Source: Trichinella spiralis
Lineage: Eukaryota
Assembly: GCF_000181795.1 (NCBI RefSeq)
Contig: NW_003526940.1
Coordinates: forward strand, 2,455,346-2,509,076
Length of the DNA stretch: 53,731 nucleotides
Direction: 5' to 3'
Under the pieces are notes generated by a model. That model was not told where the DNA came from. It was given only the letters and a program-made list of their open reading frames with translations, and did not search any database. Below, piece by piece: positions 10,276-52,222 of the stretch (the first letter of the stretch is position 1; every line of letters begins with the position of its first letter). The translations under genes were made by a program, and so were the position numbers.

Positions 10276-10346
10276 GCGTCGGTGGTTCAGTGGTAGAATG
10301 CTCGCCTGCCACGCGGGCGACCCGGGTTCGATTCCCGGCCGACGCA
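10276..10346 (+). tRNA. tRNA-Gly (GCC)
   Basis: 71-nt cloverleaf: acceptor GCGTCGG/CCGACGC, A box TGGTTCAGTGG, anticodon GCC at 10308-10310, T loop GGTTCGATTCC, downstream T-run terminator. Confidence 0.97.
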
Positions 10347-17699: not shown

Positions 17700-18275
17700 A
17701 AAATATGATTGGTTTTAAATTTCATCGTTGCTGGGAACCTAAATTTTACTGGTTGTCATTGTTATGCGTGCTATTTGTCAAATTTTGATTTCTTTTTAAT
17801 GGTCACTTTTATATTCTAAGCTTTACTATTTATCTTCTATATATTAGTAGTAGCTAAATTATAAATTTAAAAGCTGACTAGCATTTCAAAATTATAAGTT
17901 TATTAACAAATTTTCTTGCGGTTTCATAGTTTAAATTAAAGTATAAATTGAATTTAGAAGTTACGGATGCTATTAGTAAGACGTGGATTCACCATTTCAC
18001 TGAATTTTATTAAATAATTAATTGTAATTAATTTCACCAAATAAATATCATAAAATTGTAATTTTTTAATATATACATACACAGAAAATAAATAGTAAAG
18101 CTTTGAATATCAGAAAACTGACCATTAAAAAGAAATCAAAATTTGACAAATAGCACGCATTACAATGACAACCAGTAAAAAATTTAGGTTTGCGACAACG
18201 AATAAAAAAACTCATCGCAACAACAACTAATGAAATTTAGCCCGGTTGAAAACCAATGAAATTTAAAGCCAATCA
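17700..18275. repeat. Long inverted repeat pair (foldback/MITE-like)
   Basis: 17736-17805 is a near-perfect reverse complement of 18119-18190. Similarity extends inward to ~17840/18078 and outward (TGATTGGTTTTAAATTTCAT vs ATGAAATTTAAAGCCAATCA). Confidence 0.8.
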
Positions 18276-33314: not shown

Positions 33315-33831
33315 AACGAAAATAAGTTCAACCTTCAAAATATAAACCAAAGTAATTTACAAATTAAATACAGTACATAAACACTGTAAATAGGTTTATC
33401 AGGAACCTATAATACTTTTATAAAATTATTTTACTACAGAATTATTAAAAAAGAAAATAAAATATTGATGCAAAAATATTTCAATATTATAGATTTTTTT
33501 TTTAAATATTTTTTAAATAATTATTTTTTTGGTAAAACAAAAATGTCAAAATGGAATTGCTTTTAAACACTTGAAATTATTACAAAAATTAATTTTCAAG
33601 TTATAATTCATACTAATTATTTAAATTTTAAGTGTATAATTTTTTAAATGTTTTAATAAAAAATATTTCTTAAAATATTTTTTAAAGGTCAATATTTGTA
33701 CTTGAAAATACGTAACACTGTATTAGATTTTCCTACCTGACTTTAAAGATTATTTTTATATAGTTATTATTTTGTTCTATTTGTATTTGTTTTATTGCAT
33801 GCCATAGTTGTTCTTGTTTTTAAGTGCAGCA

Positions 33832-36588
33832 ATGGCTGAGAACGATCACATTCAGAAAATTATTGATGAAGCCAGAAATTTGATGAATTTTGGCTTTTCT
33901 TTCAAGGTAAAAGTTCTCAGAAAAATAAATGTGGAGGTCTGCCGTTACAAAATTAGCAATGCTAAGCGAATTATACACATTTCACCTGATTACATTGATG
34001 ATAAGAAAGATTTTGTTATGTTCGATCTTGTTCGCGTTCTTATGGCGATGCATAATAAAGTTGTTTTATATGCAGAGAGACATTACAGATTAATCGATGT
34101 TGTGAAATTTGAAGACTTCAATGAAGAACTGCTTAAATTTTTATTTGAATATTGTTGTTTCTGCATGGGAAACGATGTGGTGAAACTTTACCCTGGTGTG
34201 GAGAGTTACTTTTGTCACAAACGTTTTGATGGTTTGTGGGATTTATCTACACCTGAGAAACGCTTGTTCTCAATACCGACACTGATTGATTACTTTCTTG
34301 CAATTCAACATTTGTACATTGTACGAGGAATGTTGTTTTCTCGTTTTGGTGGTAAAATGATTGCCATATTGCTGTTATTGAGATTTTGTTCAGCAGATGA
34401 AAAATATTCTAAAGCTCTTATTAACATGATGACTACTGCTTATGCAACAACGAAAGCAAATAATTTATTGTTGCTTATGAAAACTTTTAGAAATTTGAAA
34501 TCTCGGTACGCTAAATATGTGTTGGTTTTTTGTGGGAAATGTATGTCTGAAATTACGATACAGCGCAATGGTATTTTCCACATTTTGACTTGCTTTAATA
34601 ACAAGATCCTTTTGAATGAAAAAGATAAGTTACAATGGCAAAAACGTATGCCTGAATTAATTTGTAAATTTCCGAAAAAATTTAAAGATAAGCCGATGAA
34701 ATATTATTTGATCGTGTTTCGACAATGCGTTGGCATTTTGGAAATGCGCAATGCTGATAAATGGATTAAAAATGTATGTGCCGATATTCTTCGCAGTTTA
34801 TTTACTGAAAAGAGTCAACTACCAGTATCAGTATTAAATGAGTACATCAAGAACAGATATGTCGATCGAATTCGCTCAATTTCAGACAAGCAGCTTCATG
34901 ATGTTATTATGGACGAGAAAGCAGTGTTGTCATTTTTGAGTTTAATGGATGAATTAATGACAGTTGTGACTTTGGATGATCATTTTGACGAGGTTCTTCA
35001 AATAATAGTACCTGTATTGCTGTCAATGAATTGTGATGTGCGTAATTCAGTTACATACTGCGCACCATTAATTTCTGATATTATGACCAATTTATTTGAT
35101 ACTCAAAAGCCAGCTGCATTTGCCAAGAAATTGATGGCGTGGCTTTGCAGTCGAATTGAAGATTCGTTGCTATCATTACGTGCTAAGTTTGTAATTGGTC
35201 GTCGTAATGGTGTGCAAGCAGTGGTTGTTTCATATGACGAAGATGTGGAATTTATCAACAGATCTGTAGATAGTTTCTACGCTATTTTGAATTCGATACA
35301 GAATAAGAATAATATTTATTCTGCTGTTTTAGAAGAATGGTTGAAAATTATAATCACACATTCTTTTGCAGCGCAAGAAGAAAAGCAGCAGCAGCAATCC
35401 CAGTTGCCTTTCAGTTTCCTTTTGATTGAATCTCTTTGCAGCATACTCGATACGCATATTTCGCATTTTTATGATCTGTTTTCAACGCACGCAGTGGATT
35501 TTTTGAACGTGTTGCGCAAAATTCTCAATTGGTTACTTAAGCGCAGTCACAAAAGCACACCGCTTACAAACCAAGTGGCCGCTTTTTTGTTAAAATTTGT
35601 CGGCATTTTTCATCTTGAATATTTTTTGTCACAAAAAGATATTTTGGAAACGTTTCAATCTGTTATTCGGGTGGTGAAAATTTACTCTGAAAAATATCCA
35701 AATTCCAGTATTCGTGCAACTGCTGCAAAATTAGTTGTCAATGTGAATTGTAAAAAGGGACGTTTTGATGATATATTGCAAAAATGCCAAGAAGCTTATT
35801 CGAAATTGTCAGAAGAGGAACAATCGCGCAAAGTTGAAACATTTCAAACTGTGATGGAAGATTTAAATTCGACTGCTGTAGAAATCAAAGGACATGCGTT
35901 GATCATGCTGAGGCGATTGATTGAAAATGGAGATACGCATGCGATGATGGCTTTGGAAAAGAAATCTTTTTTCGAAACACTTTGCACAGAACTTCGGGAT
36001 AAAGATTCTTATGTTTATTTGTTGACTATCAAAGTTTTAGCCGAAGCGTGCAGAAAACGGAAAGCAAGTGTGTTTCCATTCCTTTTGCAGATGTTTGACG
36101 ATATGCAAAGCAAAGGTGACGTGGAAAATTGTTTGAAAATTGGAGAAGCAGTAGCTTCGGTGATACGCCGCTTGGGCGATGTGACTCCTCATTACGTTGA
36201 ACAAGTTTTGAACAGATTTTTGAAAATTTATTACACCGGTGAATGCAACGTGAAAGTGTCCTGCTTGTGCATTATAGCTGAGATCGTCAAATCTGCATCT
36301 TACAAAATAATGATGTTCAAAGTTGAATTGTTGTCGTTGATCGAATATAATCTCAAGATACAGAAATGGTCGGTTTTGCTTCCGGCTTCTGTTCACTTGC
36401 TGCATAATTTGTTTCTCGGTGCCGAAGGGAAGTTGCTTGAAATTTATGGTGACCGACTGCATTCTATTTACAGAGAGTTGAAACGAATGTACGAAAAGGA
36501 AATCGACAATGTTGAAATTGAAAAAGCCACGAGATTGCATATTCAGTTGTGTATAGAACAGCTTAACCGAGAGTTGAAAAAGTGCTGA
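33832..36588 (+). CDS. TANGO6: TANGO6/RTP1-family HEAT-repeat protein, single exon
   Basis: ~918-aa ORF with an RTP1 C-terminal-type motif (DLNSTAVEIKGHALIMLRRLI..LRDKDSYVYL..LKIGEA..RLGD..PHY). AATAAA lies ~30 nt after the stop. Confidence 0.8.
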   Translation: MAENDHIQKIIDEARNLMNFGFSFKVKVLRKINVEVCRYKISNAKRIIHISPDYIDDKKDFVMFDLVRVLMAMHNKVVLYAERHYRLIDVVKFEDFNEELLKFLFEYCCFCMGNDVVKLYPGVESYFCHKRFDGLWDLSTPEKRLFSIPTLIDYFLAIQHLYIVRGMLFSRFGGKMIAILLLLRFCSADEKYSKALINMMTTAYATTKANNLLLLMKTFRNLKSRYAKYVLVFCGKCMSEITIQRNGIFHILTCFNNKILLNEKDKLQWQKRMPELICKFPKKFKDKPMKYYLIVFRQCVGILEMRNADKWIKNVCADILRSLFTEKSQLPVSVLNEYIKNRYVDRIRSISDKQLHDVIMDEKAVLSFLSLMDELMTVVTLDDHFDEVLQIIVPVLLSMNCDVRNSVTYCAPLISDIMTNLFDTQKPAAFAKKLMAWLCSRIEDSLLSLRAKFVIGRRNGVQAVVVSYDEDVEFINRSVDSFYAILNSIQNKNNIYSAVLEEWLKIIITHSFAAQEEKQQQQSQLPFSFLLIESLCSILDTHISHFYDLFSTHAVDFLNVLRKILNWLLKRSHKSTPLTNQVAAFLLKFVGIFHLEYFLSQKDILETFQSVIRVVKIYSEKYPNSSIRATAAKLVVNVNCKKGRFDDILQKCQEAYSKLSEEEQSRKVETFQTVMEDLNSTAVEIKGHALIMLRRLIENGDTHAMMALEKKSFFETLCTELRDKDSYVYLLTIKVLAEACRKRKASVFPFLLQMFDDMQSKGDVENCLKIGEAVASVIRRLGDVTPHYVEQVLNRFLKIYYTGECNVKVSCLCIIAEIVKSASYKIMMFKVELLSLIEYNLKIQKWSVLLPASVHLLHNLFLGAEGKLLEIYGDRLHSIYRELKRMYEKEIDNVEIEKATRLHIQLCIEQLNRELKKC

Positions 36589-37653: not shown

Positions 37654-39750
37654 TTAAACAAGCAGAACAGCATTGATGCAACCATCATTTTCAGGGTTAT
37701 TGGTTACTTGAGCATATTTTCCCCAGACAACTTTACCACTTGTAGTGACAAGACCAAGTTCGCTGACGTTCACTTCTATTATGGTCCCTTTTGTAATGAC
37801 GCCTAGCTGAGTATACATCGTAGAAGATGGATTTTTTTTCACGCCGATTATTGGCAAATGAAACGTCGCTTGCAACTCAGGATGAGTGACATGAGCTTTA
37901 TTGAACCGAAGTGACTAAATAAAAAAAGAAACAGTTTTTGCAACATCACATAAATGCAATTAAAAAGATAAAATATAATGCGAACCATTGGACGAATAAA
38001 GCGTTCAAATTTTGGTGGTTTACGAGTAAAGCCTTCTCCAACGTAGCAAACCTTTGTCACCATGCGTTTCCATGCTTTCCCTTAATAGAATTGTTTAACT
38101 GACAAAATATAATCAAATAAAGACCATATATCAAATCACTTCTAGATTTTCCTGTACGAATCACTTTAAAAGTTTCTGCTTCACTCATAGCTTTCACTTT
38201 TGGCAGAGGTACAGCCCATTTTCCCTTAAATAACCACTTTAAAATGAAAGAAAATATAAGTGCCAACAAGCTTACAGCTTTCTCCTTTCTTTTTTGCTTT
38301 ATCATGTTACTCAGAACTTTTCCGCTAGTTTGTTGTTGACGATCAAGCAAATACACAGGAATAGCACCATCCGCTGACTTCTCTGGTTTTCTTGTGCCCT
38401 GTTGCTGTTTTTCTTCATGTGCCTTTATTCTGCAACATTAAACTTTTAACAAAATATACATAAATATTTAATTTAAATACATTATAAAACAAATTAGACA
38501 CATAAAAAGAAAGAAGCTTACTAATTACTTAACCAAAATATTATCAACAATTATCGTTCATATAAAAGTATCACATTACGACTTTTACATTACAAATTAA
38601 ACACAAAATCATACAACCATATAAGTAATAATTAAACTTTGGAAACACCTAACAAGCCTAAAAAATTAGTAAAATAAGAAAACAAACTAAAAAAGTTTCA
38701 AAACTTTGATAAATAAGATGAACGGATAACCGAAATTAAATTATAAATGTTACTTACTACAATATTTAAGATTCTTATGACAATTGAGGAAAAAATTCAA
38801 TAAAAATCAACTCACAATTTTCGCATTTGAACTTTCTCCGTATAGCGTTTTCTGTTGTATAATTTCGCCTTTATTCCGCGCAACGTTTTTGCTTTTTTAG
38901 CCAATACATGGCGATCTCGGCTAATCTTTTTCCGTCTTAAAATGCACAAATTTAAATTAAAGAATCTGCATTAATGCATATATTCATTAAAATAATTCTA
39001 AATCAGAAAACAATTTCCTAAAACTTTATTATAAAAGTAAAAAATATCATAATATTGACGAGAAACAAATTTATTACTCTCTTTCTTCATGATCGAAGCG
39101 ACGACCATAGCGTCTCCGATGAAGCTCTATATGCTCGTTCTGGGGCTACAAAATACAGATTGAATAACAAAAATCATTACATTTCAAATTTAATTAGAAC
39201 AGCAAAAATACATTAGTATAAACTTGCAAAAATTGCATAAATAATTAAATTAGTGAAATAACAAACAATATTTTGCGTTATGCATAATAAAATGTTATAA
39301 GAAAAGAAATGACATTTATTATCCAAAATAAGATGCTAAAAATTAAGACTACTAATATCACTATAAAGACAGTTATAAACAGTAATAAAATACTACACAA
39401 ATGTTTTTCATTACAAAAAAATAAATGTCGAAGACAAATTTCAAAGGGAAATTATGCGTCACGTTACTCTACTAAACGTGAAATTCATAAAGTTATAAGC
39501 ATTAAATAATTTTACTTTTAAAATTGGCTGACATACTAATTTTAAAAAATTAAATGCTAAACTTTTTAAAAACGGTTTTTTTCATTTAAATTAATGAGCA
39601 ATTTATTTCCAATTTGTGTATTCTATACTGTGTAATACTGCATTCAAAACATCTGATAATAAAATGTAACTAACCATTCAAATTTAAAATACTTTAAAAT
39701 ACAAAAATAATTTATTATTCATAAAAATAAAATAGAATGCAACATACCAT
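37654..39750 (-). CDS. NSA2: Ribosome biogenesis protein NSA2, multi-exon
   Basis: [89 protein letters not shown]. Confidence 0.97.
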
Positions 39751-40472
39751 TTATAAAATTTCTACATCATTTAATATTTGTACAGTATTCTTACCGTAAT
39801 TTGAAAAAATGTACAAACTGTTACAGTAAGAGAATATACAATTAATAATGCAGAATACGGTTTGTCTAATCATATTTTAATTATTGTAAAAAATATTTTG
39901 TTATTTTAATTTATATGCCTCACGCATTACAATAATTTATTGCTTAAAATTGCGATGATACTTGATAAGCGTGATGAAAAAGAATGATTATAGTTACCTT
40001 TTCCTTATGAATTAACTGCTAAGCTGACATATCCCTAGCTTTGAACAACAGTTCTCATTGTATAGTTGTATAATAACAATTATATAATTTATTAATGTGT
40101 ATCATGATTAAAAAATAATAAAATTTGCAGGAATGAAGCAGAATAAAGTTTTTTGGTTTTGCCATTGCTGATGATGAAAATACGTAATACTCAAAGATTA
40201 TTGAAAAAAATTATATGCACAGATTAGGATCAATGCTATGAAGCCATTATGTATCTGACGATACACATCATCAGTACAAGGATAACAGAAATAAACGTTT
40301 TCTTAACATTCACACTCCATTGTGCCAGTTGTAGTGGTTGTGAAAGTTTCATGTTATTCAGAAAGTACGTATTTTGCACTTCTGCTATAAAGTAAACAGA
40401 ATTAGACGCCGCTCGTTATTGCTAAGGTAACACATTTGACGCTTGAGTTTTGTGTTTACGGTAGTATTCTTC

Positions 40473-41108
40473 ATGGCTGAAGATGACAGAGAAATATTTC
40501 GCCTTTGGAAGATACGGCAGAATGCATTTCAAATGTGTCGTGATCGCGGTTTTCTGGTCACATCCTACGAATTAGACCAAAATTTTGAAGATTTTGTACG
40601 ACAGTATGGGGATCGACCAAGCGAAGGAAAACCCGCCAGATCGGATTTGAGTTTCCTTGTTTCGCACGAAGAGGACGCTGCTGAAAATCTATTTGTTTAT
40701 TTTGCTGATGAGAGAAAAGTTGGCATAAAGACCATAAAAAACGTCTGTTTACGTCTCCAGAGCGAAAATATGAGTAGAGCTATTATGATTGTTCAAGAAC
40801 CGATGACGGCCATAGCCCGACATTCAGTAGCGGATCTCTCCCCTAAATATAAGTTAGAACAATTTTTGGAGGCCGAACTGATGGTAAATATAATACGGCA
40901 CGAGCTTGTACCACGGCATGTCATCATGTCCAGTAAAGAAAAGGACGAACTGTTGGATAGGTATAAAATCAAAGAACATCAGCTGCCGAGGATCCAAAGC
41001 ACCGACCCAGTTGCTCGTTATTATGGGGTTGTTCGCGGACAGGTATTTAAAATAATTAGGCCATCAGAGACTGCTGGCTATTACGTGTCCTATCGTGTTG
41101 TTGTCTGA
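40473..41108 (+). CDS. POLR2E: RNA polymerase I/II/III shared subunit RPB5 (RPABC1), intronless
   Basis: RLWKIR..DRG, KVGIKTIK, HELVP.H, QLPRIQ..DPVARYYG..RGQV.KIIRPSETAG. The ORF is intact at 211 aa with no introns. Confidence 0.96.
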   Translation: MAEDDREIFRLWKIRQNAFQMCRDRGFLVTSYELDQNFEDFVRQYGDRPSEGKPARSDLSFLVSHEEDAAENLFVYFADERKVGIKTIKNVCLRLQSENMSRAIMIVQEPMTAIARHSVADLSPKYKLEQFLEAELMVNIIRHELVPRHVIMSSKEKDELLDRYKIKEHQLPRIQSTDPVARYYGVVRGQVFKIIRPSETAGYYVSYRVVV

Positions 41109-41113
41109 ATAAA

Positions 41114-41165
41114 TGCTAATCTATTGGGGTTTCCCCGCGTGAGTTCGATCTCATCCTCGTCGCCA
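41114..41165 (+). pseudogene. 3' half of mature-type tRNA-Ser(GCT) with encoded CCA (extended primer-binding site on the minus strand)
   Basis: T-GCT-AA anticodon-loop half, variable arm GGGG-TTT-CCCC, T arm GTGAG-TTCGAT-CTCAT with a 6-nt loop, acceptor strand CCTCGTC-G, then CCA. The 5' half is absent. Confidence 0.88.
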
Positions 41166-41166
41166 A

Positions 41167-41377
41167 TGTAACGTTTACGCTTTTTATCAACAAACCAATC
41201 TTTTTTTATTTAACGAAACAACGCTTTTATTCAGTTAGGAATAACTATATAAAGTGATAACACACACGGCAATATTAAACTCGCTAGCACATCGACGCCA
41301 ACGCCACTTTATGCAAAATTAGATCTCCTACTCTAGATTATTGATGTTTAGGTTGTTGAGGTCGTAATACCATTACA
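41167..41377 (-). mobile_element. Single LTR-like segment (Gypsy-type, tRNA-Ser primed)
   Basis: Bounded by TGTAA..TTACA. The minus strand has a TATA-like element then AATAAA, and ends ..GTTACA, 1 nt before TGGCGACGAGGATGAGAT (18-nt Ser PBS). No second LTR is visible. Confidence 0.65.
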
Positions 41378-41607
41378 ATACAACCTACTTCATTAGATTA
41401 CTCTATGTAGTAATGCAAAATAACTGTTGTTTTACCTTGAGATGCAAGCTAATTATCTTTTAATTGTGTTTTCATCAGTATTATAATATTTTTCATTTAA
41501 TTCTTTTTATTTTTTTTCTTATTCAAATAATTTTTAATTAATTGCGTTAATTCTGTAGCGTGCCGAGCTTTTCTTCCAACTGTTTCCTCCGTTTCTACCA
41601 GCTACAT

Positions 41608-41923
41608 TGTCGTGGAGCATTACGAGACACATACACAACGGAACTCGGCATAACTATTTATTCAATAGTAGAATAAAAATGAACAACACACCAGCGGGAG
41701 AGCGCTATAAACACACACACTGATAGTCTTATTGCTAAGGATGTAAGTCAAAACGGTCGTTAACTGATGGACATGGCCACATGACGGGACATATTAAGTG
41801 CTGGATGTTGACAGCAGGCGCGCCAGCTGTTGCATCTCGTGACTAATTGATGGGCGTCTGTTTATCTTATGATGCAGCGGTGTGTTGATGGCCGTTATCA
41901 GAGACCATCGTTCGTGCCAGGCA
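41608..41923 (-). mobile_element. Possible solo LTR
   Basis: GC-richer island bounded by TG..CA, with AATAAA near the minus-strand 3' end (..CCACGACA). No TSD found. Confidence 0.3.
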
Positions 41924-42684
41924 AACTTTTAAAAACAATTATCGAACGAGATAGTACGATGAGCTTGCTGGGCATTATAATTCGAATCATTAACTGATTT
42001 ATGTATTTTTAAGCATTTTATAAATTTTTAGTAATTTTTATTTCTTATTTCATCAGTTACAAAAGTATTTATTTATTTTTTTAAATGATAAATACAGAGT
42101 TATGGATGACATCTATAAATTGAACTTGACGATCATTAATATGCATGAATTTTACAAATATGGCGTAATATTGAGAGGAGAGGGCTTAACAAATTATAAA
42201 CTTGTTTTTGGATGTTGTTTTGTAATTGTGATGCTGTCGAGTAAAAGATTCTACTGCACCAGTTTTGTAGGATGACTTCCTTATCGTACAACTTTGCGGG
42301 TATCGCAGTATGGTTAAATAGTGAACTAATGGACGAAATCTGGTTATCTGGATAGACGCTTGATTAGCATAATCCGCAAAAATAAGCATAATCCACTGCT
42401 AGCCTGTAGATTAGATTTTCTGAGAATCAATAGTTTATTTAAATTTGATTCTCTACTATTTTGTATTTTTTAGCAGGTTTACTAGTTATTTAAAAAAACT
42501 TTTTAAAATTAATATATACAAGATATTTTGCGCTTCTGCTTTGAAGAATACGTTAAAAAACAGAAACGTAATATAAACTGAATAATGAACTTGATTATCT
42601 TTTAATTGAGATAAGGTAAAATTATAAACAAAGAGGAAGTAATCCTTAATAAGTGCAGTGGTGCTGTAGTTGGACAAAATTGAA

Positions 42685-50810: not shown

Positions 50811-50976
50811 CAATACGACAAAGATTTCACTGAGCAATTAGACAAAGAAAACCATTACGACAAAGACTTCACGGCCAAATAAAATGAAAACCAATACAAC
50901 AAAGATTTGACGGTCTAATAAAATAGCGTGGGCAAAGACCAATGAGAGAAAAGCGGGACCGAGTAAAACCACCCCT
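50811..50976. repeat. DNA-transposon (probably MULE) terminal repeat with ~39-bp subrepeats
   Basis: Reverse complement of 52071-52222; repeated unit CAATACGACAAAGATTT; terminus GGGACCGAGTAAAACCACCCC. Confidence 0.7.
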
Positions 50977-51486
50977 ACGACATTAAAATGCTGTTACGCA
51001 TAATGAAAAAACTCTGCAACATTGTAAAAAATTCATTTTATTTCTATTTAATCTAGACACAAAATAAATTGTTGACCATACAAGCATTTCTAGAAATTAT
51101 TCATATCTTAAATCGTAAAAATAAACTGAACTTATCATGAAAAAGGATTTTTTCATAAATTTTAATATTAAAAATCGAAACCATTGTCAAAGTTAGAAAA
51201 TGTAAACAGATAACTGAGGGCTGAATTTTATGAACCAAAAACTGATTTTATAAAGCAGTTGCTTATTGAGTACTGAGCGAACTACAGTAAAAAAATGATA
51301 GCAATCAGAGAAGTTGAAAAGCAACTGTTGAGAAATCTTTTCTCAATACCTGCTCATCACTATCTAAAAATCCCAGTGGCAACAAAACATTGCTCCTGGT
51401 ACGAAAACAACGGTTGCACAACGCCAGTTGCACACCTTGTTTTTCTCAATGGAAAAACAATGGAAGAGCAATTAAGCGGTGAAAAG

Positions 51487-51886
51487 GTCAGCGTCCTGTC
51501 ATATATCTGCCACAACTCCGGTGGCCAGTTGCTGAAAAAGCGTCAAAGTGAAATGTGGCTGACAGCACGCCTGTTCAGACCCCGGCTAAGCTGCACAGTC
51601 TGAGAGATTGCGCAACCAAGCCGACTTCCTAATTACTTTTCGACAATCTAGGTCACCAGACGCGGAGTGAGGTCAAGAAAAAGATATAAATACAAGTGCG
51701 GAGGGAGGAGGGAACATTAACACCAACATTAACTCCAATCACACGGAACACGCCGTCTCGAACACCGCCTGAACCGTTTCTCTTGCTATATCATTGTATT
51801 ACTCACTGTTTTATTCTGAATAAACCGATTCTTAGTCGAACCCGTTGTCACTGATATTCTATAATTAACATATACAGTCCACTACA
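51487..51886 (+). mobile_element. Solo LTR
   Basis: ~400-bp GC-richer island with TATAAAT (~51685), AATAAA (~51820) and a ..CCACTACA end, flanked by AAAAG on both sides (candidate 5-bp TSD). The 5' TG is degenerate. Confidence 0.55.
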
Positions 51887-52070
51887 AAAAGGATCCTCAA
51901 GTTCGAACTAAAGATTCTTCAACAGCAACAATAAAAGTTCTTTACAATGTGGCAAAATTCTAGAAATAACAGTACTCTGCTCTCGTCCGCAAAAATTCGA
52001 CCACAAGTTGGATTTTTCTTTTACTTACCCCTCCATGTTTTTTACAAGTGGTTGTTCTCAGGCAATTTAT

Positions 52071-52222
52071 TGGGGAGATTTTACTCGGTCCCACTTTTCT
52101 CTTATTGGTCGTTGCCCACGCTATTTTATTGGACCGTCAAATCTTTGTCGTATTGGTTTTCATTTTATTGGGCCGTAAAGTCTTTGTCGTATTGGTTTTC
52201 CTTGTCTAATTGCTCATTGATT
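52071..52222. repeat. DNA-transposon terminal repeat, probable 3' TIR of the adjacent MULE
   Basis: Starts GGGGAGATTTTACTCGGTCCC; inverted copy of 50826-50976; lies downstream of the minus-strand transposase remnant. Confidence 0.7.

Follow-up and report, generated by a model that had tools for sequence, protein, structure and literature searches.

The window, that is, the whole 53,731-nt stretch of Trichinella spiralis DNA that was analyzed, encodes TANGO6 (33808-36588; 98% identical to the T. murrelli and T. spiralis proteins) and an intact RPB5 gene, next to which lies a tRNA fragment joined to a long terminal repeat (LTR) (Table 1). The tRNA piece begins 5 nt past the RPB5 reading frame and abuts the AATAAA of this gene without overlap; RPB5 is antisense to the LTR and has the same sense as the tRNA. 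An earlier note, made from the sequence alone, had described the minus-strand layout (LTR, one nucleotide, complement of tRNA-Ser(GCT)), and this layout is borne out. The junction of the tRNA end with the duplicated RPB5 gene had been missed in that note, and because the two are joined, the probable route by which the piece was fixed changes.

Table 1. Coordinates of the features around the tRNA-LTR piece (positions in the window)
Feature	Position	Strand	Details
RPB5 gene (subunit shared by RNA polymerases I, II and III)	40473..41108	+	Intronless, intact, 211 aa; ORF, Pfam PF03871/PF01191
AATAAA overlapping the RPB5 stop codon	41108..41113	+	From the sequence; last bases common to the other RPB5 copy
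Left half of a possible 5-bp target-site duplication	41109-41113	+	4/5 identical to 41378-41382
Copy of mature tRNA-Ser(GCU), CCA to U33	41165-41114	minus, as complement (tRNA sense +)	52 nt
Missing A of the 58/59 pair in the tRNA copy	between 41147 and 41148		
18 nt copied by normal plus-strand strong-stop DNA	41148..41165	-	16 of them (41150-41165) are the primer-binding site (PBS) of a family member
CCA tail, absent from the native gene	41163..41165	+	Native-gene contig ends at 41162 by depth arithmetic, 3/4 runs
1-nt spacer (T) between LTR and PBS	41166	minus	Same spacing in a family member, among the differences listed
LTR	41377-41167	minus	211 nt; TG...CA ends, 7/9 terminal bases inverted, TATA box, AATAAA
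Right flank of the LTR	41378..41382	+	4/5 identical to 41109-41113; then single-copy DNA

Elsewhere in the window, we observed a tRNA-Gly(GCC) gene without CCA (10276-10346), a MITE-like inverted repeat with arms of 67 and 34 nt (17744-18180), and a pair of 149-nt inverted arms, 92% complementary and approximately 1.1 kb apart, that resembles a non-autonomous DNA transposon (50827-52220) and encloses an LTR-like piece recognized by eye at about 51570-51883; the run of N from 52295 onward is an assembly gap. A second multi-copy repeat, probably another LTR family, occupies 41742-41785 onward on the plus strand and starts with TGTAA around 41742-41744. A 12-mer is found at exactly two places in the window, 40416-40427 and 41729-41740 (E = 0.015); this pair flanks RPB5, the tRNA piece, the LTR and a further 350 nt, and may represent a promoter motif, a target duplication lying further out or a chance match.

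There are two genomic copies of RPB5, visible as a bubble at 40928-41057. The window protein differs from that of the stand-alone copy, P0005, which is identical in six or more species, by 5 amino acids, and the paralogs show 3 synonymous changes in about 43 codons. Both copies are collinear and intronless over 40479-41113, so that intron loss cannot prove retroposition. The match to the other copy ends at 41113, which may reflect the end of a contig rather than divergence: its branch, seen in three sequencing runs, extends 7.4, 6.9 and 7.0 nt beyond 41106 in X1, X3 and X4, respectively, by depth arithmetic. To the right of the LTR, from 41403 on, there is no second contig (matches shorter than about 25 nt would escape detection), and thus the 3' flank of the other copy does not continue there at 88% or more. 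As in retrocopies, the RPB5 gene of the window is a dispersed, derived copy that ends at the mRNA 3' end, with its poly(A) signal.

In the survey of Trichinella gene models, in which 15 of the 24 members of the main cluster were listed, RPB5 is present at the window locus in all 8 fused models and in 2 unfused models checked, from 7 encapsulated taxa, and Q16, Y32 and R81 are common to them where covered. The fused RPB5–SDR–CoA synthase models come from T. spiralis, T. nelsoni, T. nativa, T6, T8, T. patagoniensis and T. britovi; the T. spiralis model KAL1227297.1 reads the RPB5 locus of the window, including upstream bases. None of the 5 T. papuae and T. pseudospiralis models at this locus contains RPB5, although a fused model without RPB5 is no proof that the locus lacks it. 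One T. pseudospiralis assembly has RPB5 on a 196,561-nt contig, and TANGO6 and CoA synthase on a 140,553-nt contig; in the remaining non-encapsulated assemblies, the separation of RPB5 from the locus is judged from distant accession numbers. Going by these models, the window copy is derived and has been kept intact in encapsulated Trichinella; a copy unique to T. spiralis was considered and rejected, given that the models place it in other encapsulated taxa. Encapsulated Trichinella keep two near-identical intronless RPB5 genes, and that in the window is often mis-annotated as fused to SDR and CoA synthase. The odd C-terminus of model P0008, from the other RPB5 locus, has no match in the window, and no Trichinella gene model reads residues from 41091-42500 at a meaningful score.

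The junction was checked in 4 sequencing runs (X1, X3, X4 and X5, of which X1 is possibly the source of the window itself) among the 24 listed, from 4 studies. In all four, a single contig spans the RPB5 end, the tRNA and the LTR, without differences over 41060-41231 in X1, X3 and X4 and with one difference over 41011-41231 in X5, which answers the concern, raised in the earlier note, that the assembly might be chimeric. Each of the four runs also contains a contig with an extra A after 41147 and no other difference listed in the tRNA stretch; the native T loop accordingly has 7 nt, as the earlier note had expected, and not the 6 nt that it had named as refuting. As 50 loose ends and 77 pieces fell outside those listed, further contig ends were solved from binned depths, assuming 30-nt unitig overlaps, and these ends are deduced from rounded depths rather than from alignments. 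By this arithmetic, coverage by the extra-A contig in the bin that begins at 41144 amounts to 19.0, 19.0 and 18.98 nt in X1, X4 and X5, respectively, which places the contig end before the CCA; in X3, the value is 45.6, owing to an unlisted contig, and no clear end emerges. The claim that the tRNA copy bears a CCA that the native gene lacks is thereby upheld. The tRNA core starts at 41114, the only position that yields the expected 14 nt in X5, and the native tRNA match spans 41114-41162. With the native RPB5 match ending at 41113 and the native tRNA match starting at 41114, the two templates meet without overlap. Aligned to whole Ser(GCT) genes, the tRNA piece covers 53 reference nucleotides with one 1-nt gap; C32 is present in two such genes of other organisms, the native Trichinella match being known only to stop at 41114. 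The 52-nt piece was not detected by ARAGORN or Rfam.

The LTR belongs to a multi-copy family of low copy number, the other copies of which exit the window sequence at 41377/8 and 41165/7 and differ from one another by about 5-10%; these exact shared boundaries settle that 41167-41377 is an LTR. One family member matches 41150-41231, that is, its tRNA part is only 16 nt long, with loose ends before 41150, and it is separated from the LTR by the same spacing as in the window. Hence the long tRNA segment is not a property of this member, and of the normal 18-nt PBS read earlier at 41165-41148, the position holds, but not the length, the genomic PBS of the family being 16 nt. Mag elements of the Ty3/gypsy group have a PBS complementary to tRNA-Ser or tRNA-Leu, short LTRs (145-287 nt in the rows seen) and mostly 5-bp duplications (PMC3286476). 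The Trichinella family resembles them in its tRNA-Ser PBS and short LTR, and is probably a Mag-like Ty3/gypsy family; this assignment is drawn from LTR length and the Ser PBS.

We conclude, with near certainty, that 41114-41165 is a read-through copy of the primer tRNA, because the native gene has the A that is missing here and lacks CCA by depth arithmetic, and because the family PBS is short. The same had been claimed in the earlier note and now has the support of the junction, the native-gene contig, the family PBS and the recurrence in metagenomes described below. As expected of read-through plus-strand strong-stop DNA, the product starts at U3, with neither internal sequence nor a polypurine tract ahead of it (7 purines in the last 12 nt before the LTR, in a single-copy flank), although a solo LTR would look identical, and, at the family's PBS position, it continues beyond 18 nt as a copy of a mature tRNA with its non-encoded CCA.

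Metagenome contigs were scanned with a pattern consisting of TGG plus Ser(GCT) sequence past position 58, with base 58 free or absent, and the 26 loci recovered were examined with 400-nt flanks; removal of 9 near-identical repeats and 3 gene-type loci (L009, L017 and L024) left 14 distinct non-gene loci. LTR-like ends were recognized by eye upstream in most of the 14; L007, L014 and L016 have a common upstream repeat and are not fully independent. The ends of eleven loci are spread over the T and variable arms, and three loci reach the anticodon stem. Of these three, two (L012 and L016) have their end at U33, and the third, L014, is full length; in L014, C32 is read as T, outside a CpG, along with 5 other differences from the nearest gene. 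The U33 end of L012 is defined relative to native genes (54 nt when L014 is the reference), and the next base is A, as m3C miscoding would give. Two ends out of 14 at one preset position have P = 0.021 under uniform ends. Five of the 14 end on CA (P = 0.028), with U33 accounting for two of the five, which is not significant (P = 0.12). Position 58 is A in 11 loci, G in 2 and C in 1; the substitution in 3 of 14, two of them from one family, is a weak signal (P = 0.03-0.14), as the pattern fixed all other bases. A deletion at 58 was found in none of the 26 loci, 21 of which read this base correctly. Downstream, L001 runs directly into a Ty3/gypsy reverse transcriptase (RT) frame and L014 into a zinc knuckle, from which it follows that re-priming after read-through happens; these are the two identified by Pfam among 18 downstream frames, the others giving nothing over the curated cut-off. 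Judging by these contigs, read-through copies of the primer tRNA recur. One upstream repeat family (L007, L014, L016, L019 and L026) comes with three read-through tRNA lengths (41, 85 and 53 nt), and two of its members have G at 58, so the extended primer site may be inherited within the family. The gene-type locus L024 looks like an allelic form of the native Ser(GCT) gene of L009, its T arm being interrupted by an insertion of about 88 nt.

The two irregularities of the Trichinella copy, the lost A and the end at U33, had both been read as footprints of tRNA methylation. The normal end of plus-strand strong-stop DNA lies before m1A58, minor stops being known at 54, 55 and 37 (PMC8599865, PMC13191261), and RT jumps or deletions at m1A are known, strong in one of 13 enzymes and lacking in HIV RT (PMC7144921). 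In the window, the change at 58/59 is absent from the native gene, as the earlier note had expected; the lost A sits in an AA pair, however, and either A could be the one lost, so that its placement at A58 is ambiguous. A random 1-nt loss would strike this pair with P = 0.04, and a random end would strike U33 with P = 0.02. The skip over m1A58 has documented RT behavior on its side, and against it the lack of a deletion in the 26 metagenome loci; by analogy with that behavior, m1A58 is somewhat more probable than not the cause of the gap, the window being the sole case with a deletion.

As for the end, m3C32 is present on Ser(GCU) of fission yeast, mouse and human and is a hard stop, mostly misread as T (PMC4986895, PMC7969016); a search of the m3C32 literature found no nematode paper. 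An end one base 3' of C32 recurs (the window, L012 and L016, all at U33), and two of the three long metagenome loci end there while the third reads C32 as T, which speaks for the proposed stall at m3C32. This pattern is confounded by CA: integrase choice is a real alternative cause of the U33 end, because U33 gives a CA-3' end, CA ends are enriched and the flanks of the piece match in 4 of 5 positions. Extrapolating from the organisms in which m3C32 is known, we lean toward a stop at m3C32 in the window copy.

The mechanism that we favor, and to which we assign about an even chance, is an aberrant plus-strand strong-stop DNA that skipped m1A58, stalled before m3C32 and jumped onto RPB5 mRNA. 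Synthesis would have been primed at the polypurine tract, giving the exact U3 start; RT would have omitted one A and so got beyond the 18-nt stop, only to stall at m3C32, the next base that blocks Watson-Crick pairing. Longer strong-stop products cannot pair after transfer (PMC8599865, PMC13191261), and the 3' end, no longer matching the PBS, would have re-primed on co-packaged RPB5 mRNA, copying it towards its 5' end. Fixation of the product, with NSA2 on one side and the SDR gene on the other, would then have taken place in the ancestor of the encapsulated Trichinella, the RPB5 frame having been kept since; the taxon spread of the locus comes from the RPB5 gene models, and the LTR-tRNA piece was read in T. 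spiralis. We favor stall-and-jump because a single step accounts both for the position of an RT product right at the exact end of a derived, intronless gene copy and for the orientation seen: the copying of two RNAs in succession would leave RPB5 antisense to the LTR but with the sense of the tRNA. Whether RPB5 was captured in the same event as the read-through appears to us evenly balanced. In favor, the divergence of the LTR copies and that of the RPB5 paralogs are of like size; against the same age, the tRNA piece is free of substitutions over 48 nt (P = 0.09-0.18 if neutral and as old as the RPB5 copy). Against the jump stand the lack of microhomology and poly(A) at the junction, microsimilarity being present at 86% of LTR-mediated retrocopy junctions in Drosophila (PMC5131818), and the form of the tRNA-plus-LTR piece, which reads TG...CA between flanks identical in 4 of 5 positions. 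Stall-and-jump leaves the absence of poly(A) and overlap, as well as the flank match, unexplained. With no A-run, no overlap and only one LTR, the RPB5 copy bears the marks of neither L1-type nor LTR-mediated retroposition of the Drosophila type, and we file it under neither.

The same read-through copy might instead have been fixed by integrase, a reading that we consider rather unlikely but that accounts for exactly what the jump leaves unexplained, namely, the absent poly(A) and overlap and the flank match. Here, a full-length cDNA would have kept its primer and the plus strand would have run into it; the normal U3 end and the CA at U33 would have been joined, with a 5-bp duplication, into the 3' UTR of a pre-existing RPB5 duplicate, and LTR-LTR recombination would later have reduced the insertion to a solo LTR followed by a tRNA tail, the U33 end being set by the need for CA, with or without m3C32. 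Indeed, the piece has CA at both of its 3' ends, the flank identity falls at the exact LTR edge (P of about 0.03 by chance), Mag elements mostly make 5-bp duplications (PMC3286476), CA ends are enriched among the metagenome loci, and the tRNA piece is unmutated. This sequence of events requires, however, that a young dispersed duplicate was hit by chance 5 nt past its stop codon, at the very point where the match of the other copy ends, that one mutation arose in the duplication, and that detectable homology to the other RPB5 copy was lost to the right of the LTR, where short matches would be missed; moreover, no A-run over 4 nt follows. A target duplication around the whole of RPB5, tRNA and LTR was sought as well; the candidate, one 5-mer plus TG at 39421, lies far off and is taken as chance.

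It is less probable still, and in our view unlikely, that the details of the read-through copy are no footprints at all, the primer having been the 3' half of a tRNA cleaved in its anticodon loop, or the cDNA having been trimmed during the patching of a DNA break or deleted later, with the missing A an ordinary slip in the AA pair. Anticodon-loop cleavage is common (PMC13191261), the modifications of Trichinella tRNA-Ser(GCU) are putative, many of the scattered metagenome ends are not at known hard stops, and no other locus has the deletion; yet the low probabilities of a random loss at the AA pair and of a random end at U33 count against this explanation, and the repeated U33 ends and the C32-to-T change in L014 fit m3C32, whereas a cut half would not explain L014. 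That no RT product is involved, the piece being a chimera of the assembly or a truncated tRNA gene next to which an LTR inserted, is extremely improbable: there is an N gap elsewhere in the window, and 2 of the 26 pattern hits are whole native genes followed by CCA, with one more an allele of such a gene, but the junction is present in all four runs, the native gene ends before CCA and the LTR-tRNA spacing is that of a family member, such that, short of long reads, we count this option as refuted by the run junctions and depth arithmetic.

A search of the literature for genomic read-through fossils or a tRNA-bridged retrocopy found none, with most subscription papers and all supplements outside its reach, and a search for the literal PBS sequence in papers found only primers. 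Retroviral strong-stop read-through, as studied in HIV-1 with tRNA-Lys3, is alike in that the LTR is followed by a copy of the primer 3' end (PMC8599865, PMC13191261); there, the major stop precedes m1A58, minor stops lie further in, and the products, made in vitro or in cells, are said not to integrate. The Trichinella piece, by contrast, is fixed in the germ line; it extends over 53 nt with one A missing, and its end lies short of position 32 in a Ser tRNA. Among genomic precedents, the nearest one seen is cqgypsy_1 of Culex quinquefasciatus, in which a CCA-bearing mature tRNA likewise replaces the short PBS after a Ty3/gypsy LTR (Marsano et al. 2012, PMC3286476); it differs in having two whole tRNAs head to head and a 26-nt LTR duplication, inside an element and with no host gene, and the available part of its paper does not interpret it as read-through or as modification footprints. 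LTR-mediated retroposition (Tan et al. 2016, PMC5131818) is similar in the RT switch to co-packaged host mRNA and in the gene copy beside an LTR, but there the retrocopy replaces the internal sequence between two LTRs, usually with microsimilarity. The Trichinella locus has one LTR, a tRNA bridge, no overlap and a gene antisense to the LTR. Colicelli and Goff in 1986, and Moore and Haber and Teng et al. in 1996, reportedly described the presence of tRNA sequence at the junctions of LTR circles and the capture of Ty1 cDNA at DNA breaks; these products are said to be alike in the primer tRNA copied next to the LTR and the aberrant cDNA patched into chromosomes, and to differ in being laboratory products without a retained host gene copy.

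The locus, then, is real and reflects an RT error of a known sort, with a likely m3C32 footprint, a plausible m1A58 footprint and a possible link to the birth of a gene. Tentatively, and with more doubt than confidence, we propose that the primer tRNA served as a bridge, with m1A58 skipped, a stall at m3C32 and a jump to a host mRNA leading to the RPB5 copy kept intact in all encapsulated Trichinella, and that LTR-tRNA fossils, recurrent in the genomes of eukaryotes, are a DNA record of tRNA methylation in the germ lines of the past. Retroviral read-through past m1A58 is thought not to integrate; here, one such product has been fixed in a genome, and one pattern search gave 14 further distinct read-through cases, some of which end at or miscopy C32. 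If the ends and errors track methylated bases, genomes would record the tRNA modification of organisms and ancestors beyond the reach of assay, and genome mining could be used to test the in vivo stop rules of retrotransposon RT. If RPB5 was captured together with the tRNA piece, this would be a new, undescribed plus-strand route to gene duplication, by which one nematode clade would have gained a conserved second gene for a core RNA polymerase subunit.
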